Virus record (IMG/VR): IMGVR_UViG_3300042350_005045
DNA from: an uncultured virus (IMG/VR IMGVR_UViG_3300042350_005045)
Taxonomy: Duplodnaviria > Heunggongvirae > Uroviricota > Caudoviricetes
Length of the DNA stretch: 20,000 bases
Direction: 5' to 3' (one strand)
The translations under genes and the position numbers were made by a program. Below the pieces are notes generated by a model. The model made no database searches. It worked only from the letters and a program-made list of their open reading frames with translations, and had not been told where the DNA came from. Below are positions 2,781-20,000 of the stretch, piece after piece. Position 1 is the stretch's first letter; every line of letters begins with the position of its first letter.

Positions 2781-5700
2781 ATGGCACTAGCACCCGCTGA
2801 CTTTTACGCTTACAGCCGTGCAACCGGGGTGCCGGTACCAGAAGATCCGGAAGAAAGGGCTGAAATGGCTCCAGAGGTCCTGGAATTCCGCCGTAATCAG
2901 CTCAAAGCCCCTGATCAAGGCGGTAATCTCCTTGGTGCCGTGGGAGCTGCTCTTGCCGGCGCTGGCATTTTGGGTGGCGGGTTCCTTGGCGTCCGTGCAT
3001 TACGTGGGCGAGAGGCGCAAAAAACGCCACAAGCCCCCTTGGGGGTAAATCTGACGGATCTTGGCAAGGTCAAAGAGACTCCTTTGCGGTCAACAGCACC
3101 TGCTCCTTCAAAAATTGCTGATCCATGGGGCGCTCCAACTGCAATTCCTCGTTCAACTGTCGATTTAACTCAGTTACAAGAACAACAAACCCCACTTGTT
3201 GCCAAACAACAAGTAGAAGCAGCAGATACTGGATTAGATCAACAAGATTTTGAAATTAATCGCGCTGTGCAAGCTGATATTGATACGACACGCTTTGGCG
3301 GCACATCTTCTGTTAGTTTGCCAATTGTTTTTAAGCGTCAGGATTCTCCCCTGGTAGATGCAGTAGGCACCGTCTTGCCAGTAGGCGACTCTCTCATTGC
3401 TAAATTAAATCGTAATAAGACGCGTCGTCAACTTGCGTTAAACCAAGCAAGGGCAACCCTGGGCCTAGAGCAGGCAGATGCGCCTTTGCCAGAAGGTTTC
3501 AGCATGGTTGCCGAGGCACAAGAAGGTGGTCGTATCGGTGAACTTGCTGCACAAAAACTTAGAGAAGCAAAGGAGCGTAGGCAAAACCAAACCGCTGCTC
3601 CTATTTCACAGCAATGGCAAGAACTTTTATTCGATGAATCTGGTTTGTTGAATAAAAAGGTAATTGCTCAAAACCTGGGAGACGAAAAAGTATTTCCCAA
3701 ATCTTTGGCCGATCTCTTGACCAAGGGCATGTCATCATCTTCTTCAATACAAGCTTTGCGTACTGGCAATTTTGAAGATATTGATATTGATCCCGCCATT
3801 CACGCAGCGGTCACTCAACATGTCAAGGAAAATGTTATTAAATACGACGACGCTGATTCCATTAAAAGTTATTTACTCGGCGGTGGCGCTGGTGGTGAAT
3901 ATCAGTCACCTAGTACCAAAGGCTTTGGGTACACTGGTACTACCTCAATGCCCACTCAAGTTATTTCTATTTCCAAAAAAGGAGGTGAAGAAACTGTTTC
4001 AATCTCTGGCCCCAGGACATCTAGCCGTAGAACACGTAGTGATTTAGAACCCCTCTTCTTTGATCCTGACACTAATACATTAATCAGCAAGTCTGATATT
4101 GGTGCGACACAATCCAGTGAGTCTGTCGCTGGTTCAGGCATTGGCGAAGAAGTGGGTCAAGCAGTGGCTTTTGTTCCTCGCAAGGAAGTCGCTGGTTTTG
4201 TTAGCTTGCCAGGTGTTAGTGCCTCTGGCCCTGAAGATGTAGCTAAAGCTCAAGGGGTTGGTTACGCTTTTGGTGGCGTTAAAGAATACGGATCTGCCGG
4301 CACCCGACAAATTTCTCCCGAAGCTTGGAAACAAATCCGTGAGCGCAGGAAGGAACTTGGTTTAAAACCAAACGAAACCAACGAAGAAATCGAAGGCATG
4401 CTTGCACGTGCCCGTGGAACAGAGGAAATTGATCTTTCCGTTGAACTGCGGCCTTTATTTAGCGATCCAAGGGATGCTCTTGAGCAAGACAAAGTTAAAC
4501 TTTCAAAAACCAATCAACCTTACTTAAGAATTGATCCGCTTATGTTACAAGCCAATCCAGGGCTTGAGCGGCATTTAAATTCTGATCCGCAATATGGCAA
4601 CACTTTATTCATTAATCCGGCTACTGGTAAAAACTTTGCGTCACCGCATGAAGCAACAAGTGCATATAACAGATTTGCAAATAATCTCAATGCAAAACTA
4701 ATTTCTTCTGCCGAAGGACGTATAGAAGCCCTGGAAAAAGGTGAGAATTTAAATATTCAATTAACGGCACCCGGTAACAAAAAAGTTACAACTGCCTTAA
4801 ATCCAAACCTCGTTGTTGATCAAGTTGTCCGTCGTAATCCAAAAGGTGAAACCGTTGTTTCGGACGTTACTCTATCGCAGGCAATTCGCAATCAATTACT
4901 GTCGCCATTTGTCAAAGATAACAGTGGCGGCATTGTGCGCGATGCAGCAGGGTTGCCCATGAGAAGTGCTCCTCTTATTCAGGAGCACACCATGATTGAC
5001 GAGGAGGGTTACGAAGGCGCTAAGTACTTCAAGCAAGCTCGCTACCTGGTACCTGAAGACAGGACTTATGTTGATAAAGAAACCGGCGAGACTAGAGCAA
5101 GCATGCTTGGCTTAGGTGATACTGGACTAGAGCTTGCCCCAACCACTCGCACAGCAGGAAACGCAGATACACGTTTAACCGCAAAGAACAATTACCTCTT
5201 CTTACAAGGAGTTAATAACGCATTAGAAAGTGTTACCGGTCAACGTGCCAAGGTTATTGATGATGCGTTGTACTTAGGACAAACCAAAGGTTTTGAATTT
5301 CTTGGCGGACCAAGTAAAAACCCTGTCTTACGTGAGGCTTTAGCAATTGCCAATACATTGGCTCAAACATCTGAAAAATCTCGAGTCCGTGTACAAGAAC
5401 CTGGCGAAGACTTTGGCTTAGGCGAACGCTATGGACTTGGTGCTAGCCGTTCTGAACGTCCCCGCCGTAATGTTCCTAGTGGCGTTCAACTGACTGATCT
5501 ACCACTTCAAAAAGTTGTTGAAACTGAAGTTAGAGATCCAAGCAGCGGAGAAATGCGTCGTGTTTCTCAACTTGTCGGTACAAATCAAATTTTGACACGT
5601 AATTTAAGTCCTGAAGTTATTGGCGGCAAACGCCTTGCTGCTTTCGTCCTTGATTATACACAGACATCTGGCAGGCCAATGCGTGCCGCTGATTTCAATC

Positions 5701-6221
5701 AGGCGGTCTTAGATCTTGCTGGCCAACTTGGCGCAAATCCAGCAGAACTAAGTAAAGAAGCAGCAAAATCGCTCCGTGGAGCTAGAACACAAGCACGTGT
5801 TGGTCCAACGATGGCACAAGGTCGTCAGGCACTTTCTGTAATGGACCGACTATCTCCCACCGAAGAAATCGCACAGACCATTGCAGAGTATGACTTTGGC
5901 GAAGTACTTGAATCTCCTGCACTTGCCGCTGAACTAGACACTGTTCATTTGGTCAGAAATAATAAAACCGGCAAAACCGAGAAAATGACCCTCAGGGAAA
6001 TGAACGCAAGAAATTATCCGGAAATATTTGGAAATCAGTTTGTTTCTACAGCTCCTTTAGACGTTGACATGGAGTTAACAACGCGTCAAGCGCAACGCTC
6101 TAGAGTAGAACCAGCGGGGTCCACTGAGCAATTTACAGTTGATGATCAAATGCTCTCGGGTAAAATAGGTCAATTGATGGCCCAGGCAGGACGTCGTGCT
6201 GGTAAACGGAGGAATCGTTAA
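2781..6221 (+). CDS. Large hypothetical protein (1146 aa), possibly virion-associated
   Basis: Long ORF, AAGGA SD, Gly/Ala hydrophobic stretch near the N-terminus; no catalytic motif recognised. Confidence 0.85.
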   Translation: MALAPADFYAYSRATGVPVPEDPEERAEMAPEVLEFRRNQLKAPDQGGNLLGAVGAALAGAGILGGGFLGVRALRGREAQKTPQAPLGVNLTDLGKVKETPLRSTAPAPSKIADPWGAPTAIPRSTVDLTQLQEQQTPLVAKQQVEAADTGLDQQDFEINRAVQADIDTTRFGGTSSVSLPIVFKRQDSPLVDAVGTVLPVGDSLIAKLNRNKTRRQLALNQARATLGLEQADAPLPEGFSMVAEAQEGGRIGELAAQKLREAKERRQNQTAAPISQQWQELLFDESGLLNKKVIAQNLGDEKVFPKSLADLLTKGMSSSSSIQALRTGNFEDIDIDPAIHAAVTQHVKENVIKYDDADSIKSYLLGGGAGGEYQSPSTKGFGYTGTTSMPTQVISISKKGGEETVSISGPRTSSRRTRSDLEPLFFDPDTNTLISKSDIGATQSSESVAGSGIGEEVGQAVAFVPRKEVAGFVSLPGVSASGPEDVAKAQGVGYAFGGVKEYGSAGTRQISPEAWKQIRERRKELGLKPNETNEEIEGMLARARGTEEIDLSVELRPLFSDPRDALEQDKVKLSKTNQPYLRIDPLMLQANPGLERHLNSDPQYGNTLFINPATGKNFASPHEATSAYNRFANNLNAKLISSAEGRIEALEKGENLNIQLTAPGNKKVTTALNPNLVVDQVVRRNPKGETVVSDVTLSQAIRNQLLSPFVKDNSGGIVRDAAGLPMRSAPLIQEHTMIDEEGYEGAKYFKQARYLVPEDRTYVDKETGETRASMLGLGDTGLELAPTTRTAGNADTRLTAKNNYLFLQGVNNALESVTGQRAKVIDDALYLGQTKGFEFLGGPSKNPVLREALAIANTLAQTSEKSRVRVQEPGEDFGLGERYGLGASRSERPRRNVPSGVQLTDLPLQKVVETEVRDPSSGEMRRVSQLVGTNQILTRNLSPEVIGGKRLAAFVLDYTQTSGRPMRAADFNQAVLDLAGQLGANPAELSKEAAKSLRGARTQARVGPTMAQGRQALSVMDRLSPTEEIAQTIAEYDFGEVLESPALAAELDTVHLVRNNKTGKTEKMTLREMNARNYPEIFGNQFVSTAPLDVDMELTTRQAQRSRVEPAGSTEQFTVDDQMLSGKIGQLMAQAGRRAGKRRNR

Positions 6222-11113: not shown

Positions 11114-11635
11114 ATGTCAAAAAACAAGAACGAAGACAAGGATAAAAATAAGCAAGCGGCAGCCCTTGCAAAAAGCGCCCAACAAATCCTAGCTATTCAT
11201 CAGTCTAGCCAGACTCCTGCTGAAAAACAAAGCGCTATACAATCACTGGGCTTTACCCCAGTTGTTATAGGCGGTCAATCAGTTGCATCACAATCAGCTC
11301 AAGCTCAAAATACTCAACAAAATTCCTCGTCTTTCGATCAGCCTCAAGCTGGAGGCGCCGGAGCTATTCCTCCTGGCTTAATAAACCTACCAATGTACGA
11401 CGCGGCAAGAGAAGCCGCAAATCTTCAAATACAAAAAGACATTGAAGATCTTCGTCAAGCTGGCCAGACTGAACGCCAAAAACTTGTTAATGAAAACAAC
11501 GAGCTAATTAAAGGCATGGAATTAAAAGGAGAGCTGGATCTCCAAGGCATTGTGAATGCTGGTTACAAGAACATTGCCAATATTGAACGGGGTTCAAATA
11601 TGTTCTCTAGCATCATGGGTGCATTCAACTTCTAA
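11114..11635 (+). CDS. Gln-rich/coiled-coil hypothetical protein
   Basis: ORF track. Confidence 0.75.
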   Translation: MSKNKNEDKDKNKQAAALAKSAQQILAIHQSSQTPAEKQSAIQSLGFTPVVIGGQSVASQSAQAQNTQQNSSSFDQPQAGGAGAIPPGLINLPMYDAAREAANLQIQKDIEDLRQAGQTERQKLVNENNELIKGMELKGELDLQGIVNAGYKNIANIERGSNMFSSIMGAFNF

Positions 11636-11678
11636 GTTGTTTGTACTAAAATACTTGTAGAGTCTATCCTTTGTCCAA

Positions 11679-11984
11679 ATGGCTTACACCACAAGAGATT
11701 ACCTGGCAAATCCGGTTCAACGTGCGGGTGACCGAACTAATTTTAGGGCCACCAAGGAACAGCTCATGGGTGAGGGCATGAGCGAACCAGAGGCTCAAGC
11801 ATTGGCCGACGAAATCACTTCTCGAAAGTATGGTGGTGGCATGTCGAATGCTGAGCTGCAAGACTTTGAAACTCTCATCGGTCGCCTTGAGCAATCCAAA
11901 ATGAAACAAGCTGCTCAAGGTAATCGCGCTCGCCAACGTGATGTGATGGCCGGTGGTCTTGCCAGCATGATGACTAACTTCTGA
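11679..11984 (+). CDS. Hypothetical protein (101 aa)
   Basis: ORF track. Confidence 0.75.
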   Translation: MAYTTRDYLANPVQRAGDRTNFRATKEQLMGEGMSEPEAQALADEITSRKYGGGMSNAELQDFETLIGRLEQSKMKQAAQGNRARQRDVMAGGLASMMTNF

Positions 11985-11988
11985 TGAC

Positions 11989-12153
11989 ATGAAGGCTGAT
12001 AACGCTGGCTCTAGCGAACAAGCTGAATTCAATCGTTATCGTCAGGCTGCAGATGTGGCGTATCGATACGCAAAGAACAAGCTTGAATCCAAAATAAAAC
12101 CAGAAAAAGACCTAGGTGAGTCAGCGTTCGGCCCTGCTAAAGAAGAGGTTTAA
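11989..12153 (+). CDS. Hypothetical protein (54 aa, MKADNAGSSEQAEFNRYRQAADVAYRYAK...), not in the ORF track
   Basis: Manual translation; fills the gap between 11984 and 12157. Confidence 0.65.
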   Translation: MKADNAGSSEQAEFNRYRQAADVAYRYAKNKLESKIKPEKDLGESAFGPAKEEV

Positions 12154-12156
12154 AAA

Positions 12157-12453
12157 ATGGCATCCCCGTATACAGGCACTTCTGCTGATTGGGAGACACC
12201 CGAAAATCTTGATCCGTACGATCTACTATTTGACGAGGAAAAAGCTCGTAAAGCTGCATCTGCCGTTAAGATCTTCCAAGATGTTTCCGTTGGTTCTACC
12301 AAGGCAAAGATGAAGGAAGAAGGCGCTCAGCAACGTGCAACCATTGGAACCTCTGGTAAAGAACAACGTGAGACAGCAGCTCAAGCCCAGCGCTTCGCTC
12401 AGGAAGACGAAGCACGAGACTATAATCAGTCCCAAAGGGCATATCGATATTGA
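12157..12453 (+). CDS. Hypothetical protein (98 aa)
   Basis: ORF track; ATG 3 nt after the previous stop. Confidence 0.75.
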   Translation: MASPYTGTSADWETPENLDPYDLLFDEEKARKAASAVKIFQDVSVGSTKAKMKEEGAQQRATIGTSGKEQRETAAQAQRFAQEDEARDYNQSQRAYRY

Positions 12454-12940
12454 GATCTTCGGCCAATGGGTCGATAATCTTGATGCACCAACCGAAGAAG
12501 CGTTCACGGGTTTTTGCTCTGAAAACTATTCGGTCATTGAGTGCTATCTCTATGCACGTTTTCTTGGTTACACAGGCAGTATTGCAGGTTGTGATCTATG
12601 GGTACAAAAGAACTATCCCAAGCCTGATCACAGGGCGGTTCTTTTGAATGAAATTGAAGAGATGCAGGAAGATATTCGTAAACTTCGTGCGGACGTTGAT
12701 GACGGAATTGTTAAACGTGACGCTGGTGTTGCACGCATCGCTGGTATGCAAAAAGAATTGCGTGGTACTATCGCACAAGTTGAGCTGAGCACGGCCAATA
12801 AGGATCGCAAGGGCTTGCTTATGGCTGGCGCCGATCGTGCCATTCGTGAACTTCTCACCATCTTCAAAGACGACCCGATTGAAGTCCCCCTGGAAGAAGC
12901 ATCGATGAGTGTATGGGCTCATATGCAACTTGAAGAGTAG
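12368..12940 (+). CDS. Helical hypothetical protein, candidate terminase small subunit; start uncertain
   Basis: ORF track 12335..12940; globular-looking N-part plus coiled coil; close upstream of TerL; last standard start before the core is GTG 12368. Confidence 0.55.
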   Translation: MRQQLKPSASLRKTKHETIISPKGHIDIEIFGQWVDNLDAPTEEAFTGFCSENYSVIECYLYARFLGYTGSIAGCDLWVQKNYPKPDHRAVLLNEIEEMQEDIRKLRADVDDGIVKRDAGVARIAGMQKELRGTIAQVELSTANKDRKGLLMAGADRAIRELLTIFKDDPIEVPLEEASMSVWAHMQLEE

Positions 12941-13339: not shown

Positions 13340-14866
13340 GTGCCTGCTTACCAACATCTTGCATACCGTCGTAACGCACAAGCGGCTGCTCGCAGGCAAC
13401 AAATCCGAATTCCACGAAATCTTGAATCCCTGGAACGGGCACGCGAAGATTTTGGCTTTTTCTGTGAATACGTAGCAGATAAACCTCCGGCTGAACACCA
13501 CAAAGAATGGCATCGTCACTTTGTTACCAACGAAGACAGTAGCTGTTTACGTAAAATTGCTGGACCGAACGTTGATCTCTTGGCACCACGGGGTTCTGCC
13601 AAATCAACAGTTTTAGGCCTGTTTACCGCCTGGGCCATTGGTGTTCATACAGCAGCCAAGTTGCCGCTACAGATCCTGTACTTGTCATACACGGTTGACA
13701 TCGCACGTTCCAAGTCGGCAACCATTAAACGCATCATTGAAAGCAAGCGGTACCAAGAAGTCTTTCCGACCGTACGCCTTTTAAAGAACGTTACCAGTAA
13801 TGAGTACTGGTCCATTGACCACAAGTTTGCAGGCATAGATACCACTGGTGAGGAACAATTTACACTCTGCGCTGCAGGCCTTAAGGGTTCGGTGACCTCC
13901 AAGCGTTCACATCTGGTCATCATTGATGACGCCATCAAATCTGCTGCGGACATCTCCAACCCTGACATCAGGAAACAGATGCAGGACAACTGGAATGCTG
14001 TGATTGCACCCACCATGTTTGAAGGCGGTCGGGCAATCTGCCTTGGTACGCGCTTTAGACACGATGACATTCATGCCACAACTTTCAACCCGCAGAATAA
14101 TTGGCTGCAGATTGTTCTATCCGCCATCCTCAACGATCCCAAAACTGGGGACGAGATGTCGTATTGGCCATCGATGTGGTCTTTAGATTACCTAAAGGAA
14201 AAGAAACGACAGGCACCAATTGCTTTCTCGTTCCAGTACATGAATCAAGTCATCAGGCAAAACGAATTGTCGTTGGCGCCAGAGCTGATTGTCAAGGCGG
14301 AAATTGCAACGGAGTTTGATTCTCTTGGTATTGGAGTTGACTTGTCGGTTGGGACAAAAGAAAAAAATGATTACACTGTTATGGTTCTTGGCGGTCGCAT
14401 TGGCGACCAGATCCACATCATTGATTACAGACGTCTACGCGTCATGGGCAACCTGGAAAAACTGGATGCCCTTAAGGAGTTGCTCAACGATTGGTCGATC
14501 CTTGGCAAGGATGAAGGCGGTCATTACTTCCCGACCTACTCCACGTGTGATATCTGGAGTGAGGCGGTTGCGTACCAGGCATCCCTGGAGGCCGACTTCA
14601 AACGTGTATGCCTTACGAACGAGAGCCTATATAACCTGAATTGGCATGCTGTCAAAGGATTCCGCGCCGATAAATTAGCTCGTTTCCGTGGTTGCATGGG
14701 CATGTTTGAAGATCGCAAGATTATCTTTAATCGTTTCCGCAACTTCACAGTTATGTTTGAAGAATTGACTAACTTTGGTGTCAGTAGTCATGATGACTGC
14801 GTTGATGCATTGGTTTATCTATTGACCGGATTGATGCGCAAGGGGCAACTTCAACTTGATTACTAA
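13340..14866 (+). CDS. terL: Terminase large subunit
   Basis: Walker A LLAPRGSAKST, Walker B LVIIDD, coupling motif GTR, RNase H-like nuclease motifs GIGVDLS and HDDCVDA. Confidence 0.95.
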   Translation: MPAYQHLAYRRNAQAAARRQQIRIPRNLESLERAREDFGFFCEYVADKPPAEHHKEWHRHFVTNEDSSCLRKIAGPNVDLLAPRGSAKSTVLGLFTAWAIGVHTAAKLPLQILYLSYTVDIARSKSATIKRIIESKRYQEVFPTVRLLKNVTSNEYWSIDHKFAGIDTTGEEQFTLCAAGLKGSVTSKRSHLVIIDDAIKSAADISNPDIRKQMQDNWNAVIAPTMFEGGRAICLGTRFRHDDIHATTFNPQNNWLQIVLSAILNDPKTGDEMSYWPSMWSLDYLKEKKRQAPIAFSFQYMNQVIRQNELSLAPELIVKAEIATEFDSLGIGVDLSVGTKEKNDYTVMVLGGRIGDQIHIIDYRRLRVMGNLEKLDALKELLNDWSILGKDEGGHYFPTYSTCDIWSEAVAYQASLEADFKRVCLTNESLYNLNWHAVKGFRADKLARFRGCMGMFEDRKIIFNRFRNFTVMFEELTNFGVSSHDDCVDALVYLLTGLMRKGQLQLDY

Positions 14867-15885: not shown

Positions 15886-18174
15886 ATGGCAGACGCTAAA
15901 GCCAGGCTCCAGGAAATCATCAATGCTTATCTTGATAAAGATAGTGACATTGTTGTAGACACTGGTGTTGTCGCGTCTCACATTGCACAGATGAAACTCT
16001 TTGGTATCCGCCAGGGAGTTGAATTTTTTCCATCACAAGATAACTTTGGCAACCAACGCAAAGACTTTATCGATCGTGTAGCCAAGTACAACAAACTTGA
16101 TACACGCCTGGATTCAATCTGGGAGTACTTCCTGTGTGATGGCAAAGGCCTTTTCTACATTCGCCCTACAAAACAAAATTATCGCCTCTATTATTTCCGC
16201 GAGCATGAGTACCGTGCGTACTACAACGTTGACGGTGAACTTGACGAAGTTGTAATCATCTATAGCTATAAGGTCCGTAAGGCCAATGGCTTCGGTGATC
16301 AGCTTGCAACTACATCGCTAACAGGTGGTCTAAGCACTGGTAGTCCTGGTGCAAAGCGTTATATCAGGCTTTCGATCAAACCTAGAGAGATTGAAGAGAC
16401 GCACTCGGATTCCGAGATGTCGTTTGAGATGCCGACCTACGCATTAACCGGTCATACCAAGACGTTCAAGAATAGTCTTGGCTTTATTCCATGCGTTGAA
16501 ATTATCAATAATCCCCAAGGTTTTTCTTCGGAGGGCACTGGTGAATTTGACGCACTAGCCAATCACATTTGTACGCATGACGAAATGATGCGTACGATGC
16601 GTAAAAATATTACCTTCTTTGGTAACCCAACGCTTCTGTCGTCTCGCCCCAAGACTGACCTTATGGAGGCAGGGGGAGACGCTATTGTCCAGCGTCCTTC
16701 TATTGCTGCAAACTCTGGCTTTACGAGTCCATCACCGATGAGTCGGTCGATGTTTAAAGCTGATCCCGTCAGCCGTGGTGTTGATGGTCAGATCCGTGTT
16801 CCACGCGTCATTGCAAACCTGGAACCAAACGACCGTGTTGGTTATATCGTTCCAGATGCAATCACTGGAGATCAAAACGCATTTGCTCGTCAGTATCGAG
16901 AAGAGATTCGTACTGCCCTTGGTGGCGTAGACGAACTATCAATTTCTGCTGGCGTGACAGCAACTGAGTACAAATCATTGTTTGGACGTGTTGCTGCAAC
17001 ATCCAAGAAAAAAGCAAATGCCATTTATACACATGGCTTATGTCGTTGTTTTGAATTGATTATCTACCAAGAGGAACAATTATTCAAGGCGACACTTGCA
17101 TCAGCGGCAGGGCTCGAGAAGCCCGTAGATCTAGCTCCAGATGCTTCACCGGAAGATGAAGCTGGTTATGAAGCAGCAGAAAAGCAATACAACGAACAAC
17201 TCAAGAGCCTTATGATGGCTTGCGTGGAAGCACAACAGATCCCACCTAGTGTTATTGGCTTAATTCCAGATGGTGACGTCACTATCTTATGGCGTTGGCT
17301 GGGACCTGTATATGAGGATTCCACACAGGACATCCTTAACAACTCCATCGTGGTTCGCAACCTTCAGGAGTTAGGTGTTGATAGCATTGAAGCACTGAAA
17401 TACCTCTTCCCGTCTAAGACGGATGAGGAAAGGGCCGAGATGTTATCTGGGTTCCCATTCAGGATGGTGAACGAATTACAGGGTGCATACTCTCAATTCG
17501 CTCGCTTGGTGGGGGGCATGATGCAGACTCCTCACCCGCAAGCACCGGATCTTCCGATGGCTGCGGATCCAAGATTGGATTTAACTCCATATCTGTATCG
17601 AACCTTAGAAGCTCTACAAAAGGAGATGAGTTATGCAGGACGCTACCGTCCAATCGATCCCACAGACGAGCCAAGTCCCGGCAGCGGTGGCTCCAAGCAG
17701 CTACGTGGCTCCAGCCCCGGTCAATTACCAGGTGGCACAGAGCCCGGCTCCAGTGGCGTATCAAGTGGGTACCAGTTACCCCCAAGCGGTGCCTCAGGCG
17801 GCCCCCAATTACCAATCAGCCCCTACGCAGTACGCCCCCCAATACCAGTCGGAAGCACCGAACAGCAACCCCTGGGAGTCGGCGTTCAACAAGGTGGTGA
17901 ATCTGCTGAGCGCACCAGTTCAATCCCCGTTCCAGGGTCAACCGTCTCAGACGACTCAATACGCTCCAGCCAATTACGGCCAGCAGTACAGCAACCCAGC
18001 TACGCAACAATTGGGTCAGCAGACCTGGTCACCCAACCAGGCTTACTTGCCCAGCTCTTCCCAAATCTCCTCGGCAGTTTACTCAACCCTGGACGGGCTG
18101 AACCCAACGTCCGAGGTGCAGACCGCGATCGCGGATTACCTGCAACTAAACAACGAAAGTCGTCACGTCGTTGA
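15886..18174 (+). CDS. Probable portal protein with a long C-terminal extension overlapping the next gene
   Basis: ~580-aa globular-looking core between TerL and the scaffold/capsid genes; assignment rests on synteny and size. Confidence 0.7.
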   Translation: MADAKARLQEIINAYLDKDSDIVVDTGVVASHIAQMKLFGIRQGVEFFPSQDNFGNQRKDFIDRVAKYNKLDTRLDSIWEYFLCDGKGLFYIRPTKQNYRLYYFREHEYRAYYNVDGELDEVVIIYSYKVRKANGFGDQLATTSLTGGLSTGSPGAKRYIRLSIKPREIEETHSDSEMSFEMPTYALTGHTKTFKNSLGFIPCVEIINNPQGFSSEGTGEFDALANHICTHDEMMRTMRKNITFFGNPTLLSSRPKTDLMEAGGDAIVQRPSIAANSGFTSPSPMSRSMFKADPVSRGVDGQIRVPRVIANLEPNDRVGYIVPDAITGDQNAFARQYREEIRTALGGVDELSISAGVTATEYKSLFGRVAATSKKKANAIYTHGLCRCFELIIYQEEQLFKATLASAAGLEKPVDLAPDASPEDEAGYEAAEKQYNEQLKSLMMACVEAQQIPPSVIGLIPDGDVTILWRWLGPVYEDSTQDILNNSIVVRNLQELGVDSIEALKYLFPSKTDEERAEMLSGFPFRMVNELQGAYSQFARLVGGMMQTPHPQAPDLPMAADPRLDLTPYLYRTLEALQKEMSYAGRYRPIDPTDEPSPGSGGSKQLRGSSPGQLPGGTEPGSSGVSSGYQLPPSGASGGPQLPISPYAVRPPIPVGSTEQQPLGVGVQQGGESAERTSSIPVPGSTVSDDSIRSSQLRPAVQQPSYATIGSADLVTQPGLLAQLFPNLLGSLLNPGRAEPNVRGADRDRGLPATKQRKSSRR

Positions 18175-18634
18175 GGCATACGGCTGGAACGCACCTGCCG
18201 TTCTTAACAACTACGCCCTTCAACTGGAAGGGATGCTGGATAGTGCTGTTGCCTGGGGAACCGAGGCCCAAAATGTCCTGCAGCGTTACGCCAACTTCTC
18301 TGTCGCTGAGCACCAAGAGAATCTGGCTTACAACGAAATCTTGACCAATCCTGATGTACTCAGCGATTACACGCTGAAGTTCTTTGGTCCTGAAGGTCCG
18401 TACCCTGTGTATGAGGATGAGTCCCAACTGGAGACCCGTGGTTATCCCACCACATCTGCTTACCAAGCCCTGGGTCAATTCCCTGCACCTCCTGCAGCCT
18501 CCGCTCCCCAACAGCCTGAAAACTTCTGGGGTTCCTTTAAGCAGCAAATGGATGTAGATCCCGCACAAGCCTGGCGCCTTCTGAACCAAGCTCAGCCTCA
18601 AGTTGTTGCCAACAAACTGTTTGTAATGGAGTGA
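17633..18634 (+). CDS. Probable capsid scaffolding/assembly protein
   Basis: AAGGAG SD at 17620-17625; Pro/Gln/Ala-rich disordered N-half and helical C-half; position between portal and capsid gene. Confidence 0.7.
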   Translation: MQDATVQSIPQTSQVPAAVAPSSYVAPAPVNYQVAQSPAPVAYQVGTSYPQAVPQAAPNYQSAPTQYAPQYQSEAPNSNPWESAFNKVVNLLSAPVQSPFQGQPSQTTQYAPANYGQQYSNPATQQLGQQTWSPNQAYLPSSSQISSAVYSTLDGLNPTSEVQTAIADYLQLNNESRHVVEAYGWNAPAVLNNYALQLEGMLDSAVAWGTEAQNVLQRYANFSVAEHQENLAYNEILTNPDVLSDYTLKFFGPEGPYPVYEDESQLETRGYPTTSAYQALGQFPAPPAASAPQQPENFWGSFKQQMDVDPAQAWRLLNQAQPQVVANKLFVME

Positions 18635-18638
18635 GGCG

Positions 18639-19190
18639 ATGCGTAATCGCTTAGCTTATGGCGTACCTATTGCCGCTGGCTTAGCCACGGGTGGGTACGC
18701 CCTTTCTCAAGGTGAAGATCCAGGCTCTGCTGCTCTTGCTGCGGCTGCCGGTGGACTTGGTGCTTATGGTGGCTTAAGGCTGGCGGGACGTTACGCGCCA
18801 GAGCTTGCTGCTCGTGCAGGTGCTTTACTCAAAGGTGAAAAAGCAAGCGGCTTGACTAAGGAACAAATTCTTGCCGCCCCAATTGCCCCTGGAACAATCG
18901 GAAAAGGCAAAGTTGCACAAGGTCCCGTCAACCCTTCTCTTAATGCACCACCAGAAAAGGGCTTAGGTCCTTCCACACGTTCATACGGAAAAGTTGCTGC
19001 TGCTGGTCTTGTTCCAGCCGCTGCACTTACCGCTGGTCTCGGCGGTGTGGCACTTGGCGCTATTCCTGGTGCTATGGGTGTTCCAGGTTTTGGTCAAGGC
19101 GGTGCAATTGATCCAGAATCCCCTGGTTCTAGCAACACTGCAAGTGCCAAATATGGCGTAACACCTTACGCTAGTACGCAGTACATGTGA
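18639..19190 (+). CDS. Gly/Ala-rich hypothetical protein with hydrophobic segments
   Basis: ORF track; GAGG immediately upstream. Confidence 0.75.
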   Translation: MRNRLAYGVPIAAGLATGGYALSQGEDPGSAALAAAAGGLGAYGGLRLAGRYAPELAARAGALLKGEKASGLTKEQILAAPIAPGTIGKGKVAQGPVNPSLNAPPEKGLGPSTRSYGKVAAAGLVPAAALTAGLGGVALGAIPGAMGVPGFGQGGAIDPESPGSSNTASAKYGVTPYASTQYM

Positions 19191-19210
19191 CATCTAAGTT
19201 CACTACCTGC

Positions 19211-19248
19211 TAAAATTTGTGTTAGATAAGACGTAAATGTCTTTATCT
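19211..19248 (+). promoter_or_regulatory. -10-like TAAAAT followed by a leader hairpin upstream of the probable capsid gene
   Basis: TAAAAT 19211-19216; AGATAAGAC GTAAAT GTCTTTATCT 19224-19248. Confidence 0.5.
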
Positions 19249-19288
19249 TTCACCCGATAAAAACATCGACACTGGAGGATAAACCAAG

Positions 19289-19300
19289 GTGTTTATTGAT
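19289..19300 (+). CDS. Exon 1 (M-F-I-D) of probable major capsid protein gene
   Basis: GGAGG SD at 19274-19278; GTG TTT ATT GAT, then in-frame TAG two codons later inside the intron; position after the scaffold gene. Confidence 0.7.
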
Positions 19301-19302
19301 AG

Positions 19303-19857
19303 CTAGTTCAGATCCTGGTAGGTATAGCCCTTCAAGATTTGGTAAATAGCTCCGTGGTTACAGTTAAACTTTTCAGCAATCTTTCGATAAGAAAGTCCCG
19401 CTTCTTTTAAAGCTTTAATCTGAGCCACATCCTCCGAAGAAAATTTTCTCAAAGATTTCTTCGGTGCTCCTTTACTGGCAAAGCCATTGTTTTTATAACA
19501 ACCGCTCTTCCAGGCTCTTGTTAAGTTCTCTTGTTTGGTAACGATCTCTAGATTGTCAAGTCGATTATTCCTCTTGTCGTTATCTTTGTGATCAACTTGT
19601 AAGGAAAAGTTACTGGTTCCATGTGAACGCAGGTCTAATCCTAAGAAAGCAACCGCCATCAAGACATGAAGATGAAAACGTTTTCTCTTCCCATCTACAA
19701 GAACTGAAATACGGTCGTAAACACTGGTTGAACGAATGGGGATCTCTTGAAAATATTCTTGATTATCGGGATCAAGTTGTTTTTCAAAAGCTTTTCCCTC
19801 TTCCGTTAAGTAAAGGTTACCAAATCCAGGAACAAGTTTTGGATCCATGTTGTTCAT
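19303..19857 (-). CDS. HNH homing endonuclease (NUMOD4-like N-terminus, HNH_3 core, C-terminal HTH), intron-encoded, antisense
   Basis: LHVLMAVAFLG...VDHKDNDKRNNRLDNLEIVTKQEN; C-terminal LSYRKIAEKFNCNHGAIYQILKG; ATG 19857 preferred over 19881 because of the promoter position. Confidence 0.9.
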   Translation of the reverse strand: MNNMDPKLVPGFGNLYLTEEGKAFEKQLDPDNQEYFQEIPIRSTSVYDRISVLVDGKRKRFHLHVLMAVAFLGLDLRSHGTSNFSLQVDHKDNDKRNNRLDNLEIVTKQENLTRAWKSGCYKNNGFASKGAPKKSLRKFSSEDVAQIKALKEAGLSYRKIAEKFNCNHGAIYQILKGYTYQDLN

Positions 19858-19871
19858 AAACAGCTTTCCAA

Positions 19872-19900
19872 AGCATAGCATGCCTCAACTGAACGCTCAA
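19872..19900 (-). promoter_or_regulatory. Sigma70-type promoter for the HNH gene
   Basis: Minus strand TTGAGC (19900-19895), 17-nt spacer, extended -10 TGcTATGCT (TATGCT 19877-19872). Confidence 0.65.
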
Positions 19901-20000
19901 CGTTGTCACCCCACCGAGCAATCGATGGGTGCAAACCGGATGAATTCAGGGAAGCCCTAACGTAAAGACGAGGGTAATCCTGAGCCAAGCCAATCAAGTC

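Follow-up and report, generated by a model that had tools for sequence, protein, structure and literature searches.

A group I intron with an antisense HNH endonuclease gene, very probably mobile, four codons into the major capsid gene of S-EIV1-like freshwater cyanophages

How can a phage make its major capsid protein from a gene whose reading frame closes after five codons? The question is raised by the end of a 20,000-nucleotide (nt) stretch of DNA (hereafter the window) from the uncultured virus IMGVR_UViG_3300042350_005045 (Caudoviricetes), where a Shine-Dalgarno sequence and the codons GTG TTT ATT GAT are followed directly by AGC TAG, so that the frame is closed by TAG. A reading of the letters made without database searches (hereafter the sequence-only reading) had proposed that a group I intron interrupts the probable major capsid gene after its fourth codon, that the unspliced RNA would yield only MFIDS, and that splicing might in this way time capsid synthesis. 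All the coordinates it gave hold in the window, where the Shine-Dalgarno sequence, the four codons, AGC TAG and the guide sequence are read as it had said. We find it highly probable that the element is a group I intron that is mobile and bears an antisense HNH gene in the loop of its P1 helix, inserted 12 nt past the GTG of the capsid gene of an S-EIV1-like freshwater cyanophage. This reading is carried by the anatomy and boundaries of the intron, the covariation of its helices, the families of both proteins, the selection on the HNH gene and the polymorphism of the insertion.

The boundaries of the intron were read through relatives. A search with the 762-amino-acid (aa) virion protein encoded upstream returned 80 IMG/VR loci (the portal-selected set), an exact 48-base stretch of the ribozyme core returned 99 further viral contig stretches, and window positions 18600-20000 were compared by blastn with all 180 loci. 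The alignments fell into three classes: those that stop at 19301, those that break off at 19320 and start again at 19885, separated by about 16 bases (e.g., L002, L009, L035, L063), and those that run through. The first class is intron-less, as in L007, where the gene reads GTG TTC ATT GAT AAC GAC TTT CCA AAG (MFIDNDFPK). Exon 2 had been predicted from P10 pairing to begin with AACG, giving M-F-I-D-N-D, and exactly this start is seen both in intron-less relatives and downstream of the introns of other relatives. L005, 98% identical to the window over 19018-20000, carries an 825-nt insertion after GAT that ends in ...CCAGGAG and is followed by AACGAC. The last 100 bases of the window are present in four contigs (L169, L171, L130 and L005, with 100%, 99.7%, 99.1% and 98% identity over the overlap, respectively), all of which run on for 125 nt to ...CCAGGAG and then AACGAC.

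Every complete intron (85/85 locus hits) has a terminal G followed by AACGA. These hits comprise 50 distinct sequences, namely 43 long introns (808-827 nt), 6 of 274-277 nt and 1 of 230 nt. Since the intron and exon 2 both begin with A, the boundary is ambiguous by one base; this was settled by a rule of group I introns, in which the last base of the exon is U and that of the intron is G. The terminal G and the AACG in frame with a long capsid open reading frame (ORF), whose absence had been named as a refutation, were found in near-identical relatives; the sequence available for the virus itself ends before that point.

Membership in group I was evaluated with the Rfam model RF00028. The window matched at 19876-20000 on the plus strand (34.6 bits, E 5.7e-07; model positions 1-113 of 253, with the 3' end cut); this score lies below the gathering score of 50 because the window ends inside the intron, and a search of the whole window at the gathering threshold gave 0 matches. 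Complete copies exceed it clearly, with 97 bits for the 277-nt ORF-less intron of L035 and 90.3 bits for L005. The terminal U of the 5' exon forms the U19300-G19905 wobble in P1, and the intron-terminal omega G is present in relatives at a position that lies beyond the window. P2, P4 and P5, which the sequence-only reading placed after the guide, are canonical in the Rfam match and in the alignment of relatives, as are P1, the guide and P3.

The predicted structure was tested on 42 distinct cores with a manual model of 66 pairs (P2-P9, the P7 pseudoknot and P10). As modelled, 97.0% of cells were paired and 14/66 pairs were changed on both sides, compared with 28.8-40.7% and 0-3 pairs when the partners were slid; the observed pairing values were reached by 0/500 shuffles. 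Compensatory pairs were located in P2, P3, P6, P7.2, P8 and P9, and the P3-P9 core with its P3/P7 pseudoknot is supported by covariation. RNAalifold, run on the 42 distinct cores, returned 53 pairs (12 compensatory) and paired the guide CGUU with the AACG of exon 2 unprompted. In the Rfam alignments of L035 and L005, a 38-nt insertion stands between P7 and the 3' strand of P3. Phage-type introns of subgroup IA have extra P7.1/P7.2 hairpins at this place. The insertion forms two nested stems, and a second phage lineage has a different sequence there that is still complementary (the P7.1/P7.2 columns were misaligned by MAFFT in seven divergent rows and were counted as unpaired). By the usual definition of the subgroup, the intron would be IA-like. 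L118 (2960-3186) combines a P7.1/P7.2 segment of the second, ATG-start lineage with a core that is otherwise of the first lineage, a sign that intron variants may have recombined.

Beyond these relatives, a distant DNA search of cultured phages recovered only the 45-70 nt P3-P6 core (window 19941-19992; 82-94% identity) in 29 records, 0/29 of which cover 80% of the query. The P4-P5 stretch is 82-94% identical to introns of unrelated cultured phages. The core-matching phages include those of Ralstonia, Klebsiella, Escherichia, Vibrio and Staphylococcus, and in most of them the core is unannotated.

The 5' splice site is tied to the intron by pairing. The guide sequence CGTTGTCA is located at 19901-19908, as the sequence-only reading had placed it, and the pairing it claimed between GUCA and exon UGAU, which puts a U-G pair at the splice site, is borne out by a compensatory change in the second phage lineage, whose capsid gene starts ATG TTY ATC GAT and whose guide ends in GUCG. 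All 50 distinct introns keep the pairing: exons ending in TGAT go with guides ending in GTCA (42/42) and exons ending in CGAT with guides ending in GTCG (8/8), so that exon position -4 and the last base of the guide form 42 U-A and 8 C-G pairs. In the minimal intron (L160, 230 nt), exon CGAU plus AGC pairs with GUUGUCG in a 7-bp stem closed by a UAAC loop, and this bare P1 is the minimum-energy fold (z-score -2.35). The stem that extends the P1 loop in larger introns has the form ACUCAG/CUGAGU in the second lineage, with two compensatory pairs, and is not present in L160. P10, formed by CGUU and AACG (columns 1-4 with 228-231), was paired in 100% of cells and does not vary among the copies that carry the intron. 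With regard to the 41 intron-less portal-selected loci, 31 have the GAT/AAC site, 4 have an exon 1 ending in GAC and 6 have an exon 2 starting with ACC or ACA; these variant sites were never seen with an intron among the portal-selected loci. Such a pattern agrees with the pairing rules, although common descent would explain it just as well.

In the database, this genome is represented by a linear virus fragment of 24,929 bases with a CheckV completeness of 31%. The record (G000) ends at window position 19977, 23 bases short of the window end. The Rfam alignment continues correctly through window 19978-20000 and the bases match those of relatives, which indicates that the window was taken from a copy of the contig that is slightly longer. 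The missing 3' half was also sought at the other end of the record; the sequence is not continued there, so the record is not a circle. A record that ends within the intron raises the possibility that this copy is decaying and non-splicing, with the phage defective or the assembly a chimera that ends here. A number of other contigs likewise break off within the intron or close to it, as they would where strains differ by an insertion and assemblies break. We consider such decay very improbable, given that the 700 nt present are 98% identical to L005 with its complete intron, that the HNH ORF is intact in the window, that P1, the guide, P2, P3, P4 and P5 are all canonical, and that contigs 99-100% identical over the last 359-547 nt continue normally. 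As the window lacks the 3' 125 nt, we infer an intact ribozyme in the virus's own genome from the contigs that are 98-100% identical over the overlap.

The bulk of the stretch that had been called intron is an HNH ORF on the minus strand, which the sequence-only reading did not mention. Its conserved start among relatives is the ATG at 19848-19846, which gives a protein of 181 aa. At its 3' end the ORF extends to 19303, past the segment that ORF-less introns lack, so that the final six codons and the stop codon fall within conserved sequence of the ribozyme. The translation contains the Pfam domain HNH_3 (PF13392; residues 88-119, E 3.4e-10, 39.8 bits against a cut-off of 24.8), in which the His/Asn motif VDHKDNDKRNNRLDNLE is visible, and it continues into a C-terminal helix-turn-helix. 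The protein belongs to the HNH endonucleases of phrog_59 (E 8.5e-28), and phmmer aligned its residues 54-186 with the I-HmuI structure 1U3E (E 8.6e-05). It is probably an I-HmuI-like homing endonuclease; its activity, target and homing are inferred, with indirect evidence from the selection on the gene and from the presence/absence polymorphism among close relatives.

The ORF is intact (176-192 aa) in 41/43 distinct long introns. Pairwise ratios of nonsynonymous to synonymous substitution rates (dN/dS) had a median of 0.11 (range 0.02-0.30; 612 pairs with dS > 0.05 among 36 ORFs), with 7 of the 43 long introns left out of the dN/dS and promoter tables where the start-motif pattern was unmatched. 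An intact frame in most copies together with this median argues for a working gene, which by these substitution patterns is under purifying selection. A promoter scan with looser criteria found a TTGAGC-type hexamer, a 17-nt spacer and TAnnnT at 22-24 nt from the ATG in 31/36 relatives, with 9/12 matches in 3/36, and the site at 19900-19872 may serve as a weak lead to an HNH promoter.

It could be argued that the HNH gene is free-standing, placed between a short leader-peptide ORF and an ORF-less intron, with the capsid gene starting further downstream. The minus-strand ORF does fill the space from GAT (19300) to the start of the Rfam match at 19876, and in phage T4 the antisense segD sits between genes 23 and 24 (PMC2988022, accessible text). 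We regard this arrangement as scarcely credible. Intron-less relatives join GAT directly to AACGAC, which makes everything from 19301 on an insertion, and ORF-less introns retain 19301-19320 and 19885 onward with a small hairpin between. Moreover, the stem around the cassette covaries, the guide covaries with an exon 600 nt upstream, and there is no open-frame start codon inside the intron before exon 2, the frame opening only 18 nt before the 3' splice site.

The interrupted gene had been called a probable major capsid gene, and this stands. In L005, the frame of exon 2 opens 18 nt before the splice site and reaches a stop 383 codons past it, and the intron-less homologues have 387 aa. The protein falls in phrog_1357, major head protein (E 7e-11). 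A homologue search gave 183 representatives at E <= 0.001, of which 36 full-length sequences were aligned. No Pfam-A family and no PDB sequence relative was found for the protein, and PF25209, which a precomputed listing gives for some homologues, was not reproduced at E <= 0.1 on three of these. The fold was predicted instead. The AlphaFold2 model (predicted local distance difference test 75.9, predicted template modelling (TM) score 0.77) retrieved phage capsids at the top of a Foldseek search against the PDB, with P-SCSP1u first (E 3.3e-13), followed by Pan3, Ralstonia phage GP4, LME-1 and N4, plus encapsulins. Matches to P-SCSP1u, Pan3 and GP4 had E-values of 3.3e-13 to 6e-12, a probability of 1.00 and TM scores of 0.47-0.55, among 343 matches at E <= 0.001. 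On the strength of the model and of sequence similarity, we identify the host gene as that of a major capsid protein with the HK97 fold, belonging to the S-EIV1 lineage of cyanophages.

Among the phages in the collection, Synechococcus phage S-EIVl is the sole cultured relative, and it is intron-less (tblastn, 87% identity over 99% of the query). Its GenBank record (KJ410740.1, 60859-61839; L181, locus 4001-4981) has no correct coding sequence for the capsid protein, and the matching region is annotated instead with a 'hypothetical protein' on the minus strand and a short one on the plus strand. Some public gene calls (P0043 and similar) start at LGAELY... and give 377 aa instead of 387, ten residues short, which is what a gene caller would produce on an intron-bearing contig. 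The intron-less capsid ORF of L007 (4110-5226) ends after 334 aa, and the C-terminal residues that the 387-aa homologues have beyond this point are encoded in a second frame; the frameshift near codon 330 may be an assembly error or real.

Among the portal-selected loci, 62/80 cover the insertion site; 41 have no intron, 15 have an intron with the HNH gene, 5 have an ORF-less intron and 1 is cut too early to tell. The states are thus no intron, an ORF-less intron of 230-277 nt, or an HNH intron of 808-827 nt, and all three occur behind portals 97-100% identical to that of the window (L004 and L007 without intron; L002 and L009 ORF-less; L005 and L006 with the HNH gene). This distribution fits what would be expected for a homing element that cycles through gain, endonuclease loss and intron loss. 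With 41/62 site-covering relatives lacking the intron, the phage does not need it, and judged by these sequences the intron is a dispensable, selfish and optional mobile element.

This bears directly on the timing switch put forward in the sequence-only reading, in which capsid synthesis is gated by splicing and the micro-exon with its early stop serves late expression. The idea has its attractions, for translation of the unspliced RNA ends after 5 residues. Given the size of a ribosome footprint, a 5' splice site 12 nt from the start codon would also set the initiating ribosome and P1 in competition for the RNA. In a variant, antisense HNH transcription would modulate this switch; the P1 loop of the pre-mRNA and the HNH gene are exact complements, and the minus strand has a conserved TAnnnT upstream of the gene. 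A fixed regulator would hardly be missing from 41/62 relatives, some of them with 97-98% identical portals, and the ORF-less and minimal 230-nt forms are those of a homing cycle. Nothing in the sequence ties splicing to a signal. One candidate for such a device was rejected: intron AUCCU (19312-19316) pairs with the AGGAU of the Shine-Dalgarno sequence in the minimum-energy fold of 19250-19330, yet 147/200 shuffles fold as well (z-score 0.57), no better than chance, and the second lineage, which has no such Shine-Dalgarno sequence, counts against it. We judge a timing switch to be quite improbable and this part of the sequence-only reading to be unsupported, although a splice site within ribosome reach and an immediate stop could affect kinetics.

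Lake and freshwater metagenomes from 17 studies contain the stretch, and six RNA runs contain it in part. For four of these runs (X15-X18), contigs were aligned to L005 positions 11200-12700 at likeness 90 (L005 coordinate + 7840 = window coordinate). Two contigs of X17 join 11460 to 12286, an exact skip of the 825-nt intron (ends AG..AG), and in X18 GTGTTCATTGAT directly precedes 12286. Another X17 contig joins the last base of the intron, 12285, back to 12054 (window 19894) with a side of 65; the joined site follows UGAA, which resembles the exon's UGAU. Such a joint is impossible from an intron-less genome and matches a truncated intron circle of 232 nt, of which we take it as a hint. The contigs fit splicing in nature, which they show only in part. 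Two further joints, 11278 to 11367 (side 24) and 11392 to 12288 (side 26), each seen in a single contig, were taken as divergent relatives and set aside.

Several points weigh against our interpretation of a mobile, splicing intron. The exon joint has a side of 29 at likeness 90 and was flagged weak, and its contigs could stem from intron-less strains living in the same water, as transcripts or as DNA. The back-joint is a single contig with a depth of 2.94. X15 and X16 contigs cross the 5' junction, and X16 also holds the whole intron unspliced; these read-through contigs may be precursor, antisense RNA or DNA. As for structure, P10 has no pair changed on both sides, and P4, P5 and P7 are invariant, so that they neither support nor contradict the model. 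The 3' 125 nt of the intron and exon 2 lie outside the window and the genome record. The HNH ORF is shortened to 118 aa in 2/43 long introns, and no sigma-70-type minus-strand site upstream of it exceeded the promoter-scan threshold. Finally, no experiment on this intron was found in the literature.

Weighing these points, we retain the mobile intron and propose that it would act as follows. The pre-mRNA carries the Shine-Dalgarno sequence, GTG and four codons and then the intron. P1 would form from exon UGAU and intron AGC with the guide GUUGUCA, and guanosine attack after U19300 would initiate splicing. The guide CGUU would hold the AACG of exon 2 (P10), and ligation would restore MFID/NDFPK... 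and a 387-aa capsid protein, whereas without splicing translation would halt after MFIDS. The P1 loop is extended by the GUUCAG/CUGAAC stem, whose terminal loop carries the HNH and helix-turn-helix gene on the opposite strand. When phages co-infect a cell, capsid alleles without the intron are presumably nicked or cut by the enzyme, and repair would copy the intron in.

A further proposal, which we hold to be unlikely, links the reversed HNH gene and the capsid intron in a small antisense circuit whose end product is a circle. In this view, the HNH mRNA would arise from a weak promoter whose -35 element lies inside the ribozyme sequence, would be perfectly complementary to the P1 loop of the pre-mRNA and would run head-on into the capsid promoter. 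Heavy late capsid transcription would then silence the endonuclease, and early HNH transcripts could mask P1. After splicing, the last G of the intron would attack behind a UGAA that mimics exon UGAU; the 593-nt part with the antisense HNH gene would be lost and a circular ribozyme of 232 nt would remain. Should this hold, phages would offer a natural case in which gene orientation controls a homing endonuclease, together with a truncated intron circle of defined form in environmental RNA.

Table 1. Features at the end of the window, with positions counted from its first base.
Feature	Position	Strand	Basis or remark
Promoter-like site GTGACA, 18 nt, TAAAAT	19187-19216	+	TG before second hexamer; 10/12 matches; consensus match only
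Shine-Dalgarno sequence GGAGGA	19274-19279	+	9 nt ahead of GTG start; read directly
Exon 1 of major capsid gene, GTG TTT ATT GAT (M-F-I-D)	19289-19300	+	4-codon micro-exon; read directly; intron-less relatives
P1 5' strand, exon UGAU + intron AGC	19297-19303	+	partner GUUGUCA 19902-19908; U19300-G19905 at splice site
Group I intron, first 700 nt	19301-20000	+	about 825 nt in full, last 125 nt past window; truncated RF00028 match; relatives
HNH homing endonuclease gene (predicted)	19303-19881	-	longest ORF 192 aa; antisense to intron and capsid gene
In-frame TAG	19304-19306	+	one codon inside intron; unspliced message would read MFIDS-stop
P1-loop extension stem, 5' strand GUUCAG	19306-19311	+	pairs with CUGAAC 19889-19894
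HNH cassette	19321-19884		in long introns; ORF-less introns carry a 16-18 nt hairpin instead
Weak promoter-like site for HNH gene, TTGAGC, 17 nt, TATGCT	19872-19900	-	23 nt before conserved ATG; suggested by motif
P1-loop extension stem, 3' strand CUGAAC	19889-19894	+	19894 is the position joined to the intron's last G in an RNA contig
Internal guide sequence CGUUGUCA	19901-19908	+	GUCA with exon 1 (P1); CGUU with exon 2 AACG (P10)
P2 hairpin, GCAA loop	19910-19929	+	4/7 pairs with changes on both sides
P3 5' strand	19936-19942	+	partner past window end; 1 compensatory pair
P4-P5 domain	19946-19983	+	10/11 pairs invariant
P6 start	19984-20000	+	interrupted by window end; Rfam match and alignment

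The capsid gene follows a 183-aa plus-strand ORF that terminates at 19190. Between the stop codon of that upstream gene and the capsid start lies the promoter-like site of Table 1 (L005 11347-11376), a sigma-70-type site that overlaps the upstream stop codon and stands 73 nt ahead of the capsid GTG. A promoter scan of this region gave 3 sites versus 1.9 expected by chance, and the site is a candidate capsid promoter by its match to the consensus. The 762-aa virion protein used to collect relatives is encoded at 15886-18174 (+) and belongs to phrog_20475, with a weak portal match. Its ORF is overlapped for about 540 nt by a 333-aa ORF in another frame (17633-18634, +). The match of relatives to the 762-aa protein ends at residue 733 or at 750-762, and the C-terminal end of the gene either varies or is mis-framed in some contigs. 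Elsewhere in the window, the 1146-aa ORF at 2781-6221 (+) has no Pfam-A family at E <= 0.01, likewise most other large ORFs; the sole Pfam-A match among them is Terminase_6C, in the 508-aa ORF at 13340-14866 (E 2.4e-08).

The arrangement has consequences for how these viruses are counted and studied. Gene callers miss or truncate the major capsid gene in a widespread freshwater cyanophage lineage, and as long as the 4-codon exon and the intron go unrecognised, capsid-based surveys and phylogenies are distorted. The natural series of empty site, 230-nt minimal intron, 275-nt ORF-less intron and 825-nt intron with antisense endonuclease, spread over many lake metagenomes, is well suited to studying how homing elements cycle through gain and loss in virus populations in the wild. 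With the splice site within reach of the initiating ribosome, it is also an extreme case in which the interplay of translation and group I splicing would be testable given an intron-bearing isolate.

A literature search found no published account of this intron; the description of S-EIV1 (PMC4542036) and its supplements lay outside its reach (here and below, statements on published work refer to the accessible text of the papers cited). A review (PMC3984707) and a database paper (PMC11835236) contain neither 'antisense' nor 'capsid' in their text, PMC6669764 has nothing about capsid introns, and PMC10914365 has nothing about endonuclease orientation. Capsid-gene introns themselves have been published, and the sequence-only reading, in stressing that most described phage introns lie in DNA-metabolism genes or psbA, overstated the rarity of the present one. 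They are reported for mycobacteriophage LittleE and lactococcal phage Tuc2009 (the latter as cited in PMC3706429) and for crAss-like phages of the Delta and Zeta groups (Yutin et al. 2021, PMC7886860). In LittleE (Cluster J; Pope et al. 2013, PMC3706429), the capsid gene is split by an 819-bp 'most likely group I' intron whose splicing was shown by reverse transcription PCR and N-terminal protein sequencing.

The intron described here resembles that of LittleE in several respects. Both are introns of about 820 bp in the major capsid gene, near the part that encodes the mature N-terminus, in both exon 1 ends in U and the intron in G, both have intron-less close relatives, and in both the endonuclease gene of the intron is read from the opposite strand. 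Going by that paper, the combination of a spliced intron in a capsid gene and an endonuclease on the bottom strand is already in print (PMC3706429). The two differ in that the LittleE enzyme is LAGLIDADG-related with an HNH-like C-terminus, whereas here it is an I-HmuI-like HNH protein with a helix-turn-helix. Group I type is settled here by Rfam score and covariation, and the 5' exon of only 4 codons, the cyanophage lineage and the natural ORF-less and minimal forms also set the present intron apart. Splicing is bench-proven in LittleE and suggested here by sequence and RNA contigs.

Other systems share single traits with this one. The gene of I-HmuI is sense-oriented within the DNA polymerase gene. 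Like I-HmuI (phage SPO1, DNA polymerase group I intron, 1U3E), the present enzyme is intron-encoded and has an HNH domain followed by a helix-turn-helix tail; unlike it, the gene is antisense and lies in the P1 loop of a capsid-gene intron, and the sequence similarity is weak. The introns of crAss-like phages likewise have endonuclease domains, interrupt core virion genes including the capsid gene and come from metagenomic genomes, but these phages have many introns per genome and gene, in contrast to the single intron in the window (PMC7886860). Known cyanophage introns lie in psbA of S-PM2-type phages and in Pf-WMP3's gene for DNA polymerase, the latter with the HNH nickase I-PfoP3I (PMC3428280). 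They are of group IA type, to which the present intron may also belong, and that of Pf-WMP3 also encodes an HNH enzyme; the interrupted gene there serves photosynthesis or replication, whereas here it is virion structural, and the phage lineage is different.

With regard to gene orientation, the endonuclease genes of phage T4 are all in sense except the free-standing segD, which adjoins the capsid gene (PMC2988022). The group I intron in nuclear ribosomal DNA of Didymium iridis carries an antisense gene, I-DirII, with its own promoter (PMC3073962), but that system is eukaryotic, with an RNA polymerase II promoter, a spliceosomal intron and a poly(A) tail, and it has no relation in sequence or host to the present one. 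Against this background, what is particular to the cyanophage intron is the 4-codon exon, the endonuclease in the P1 loop, the full allelic series and the possible circle junction in environmental RNA.

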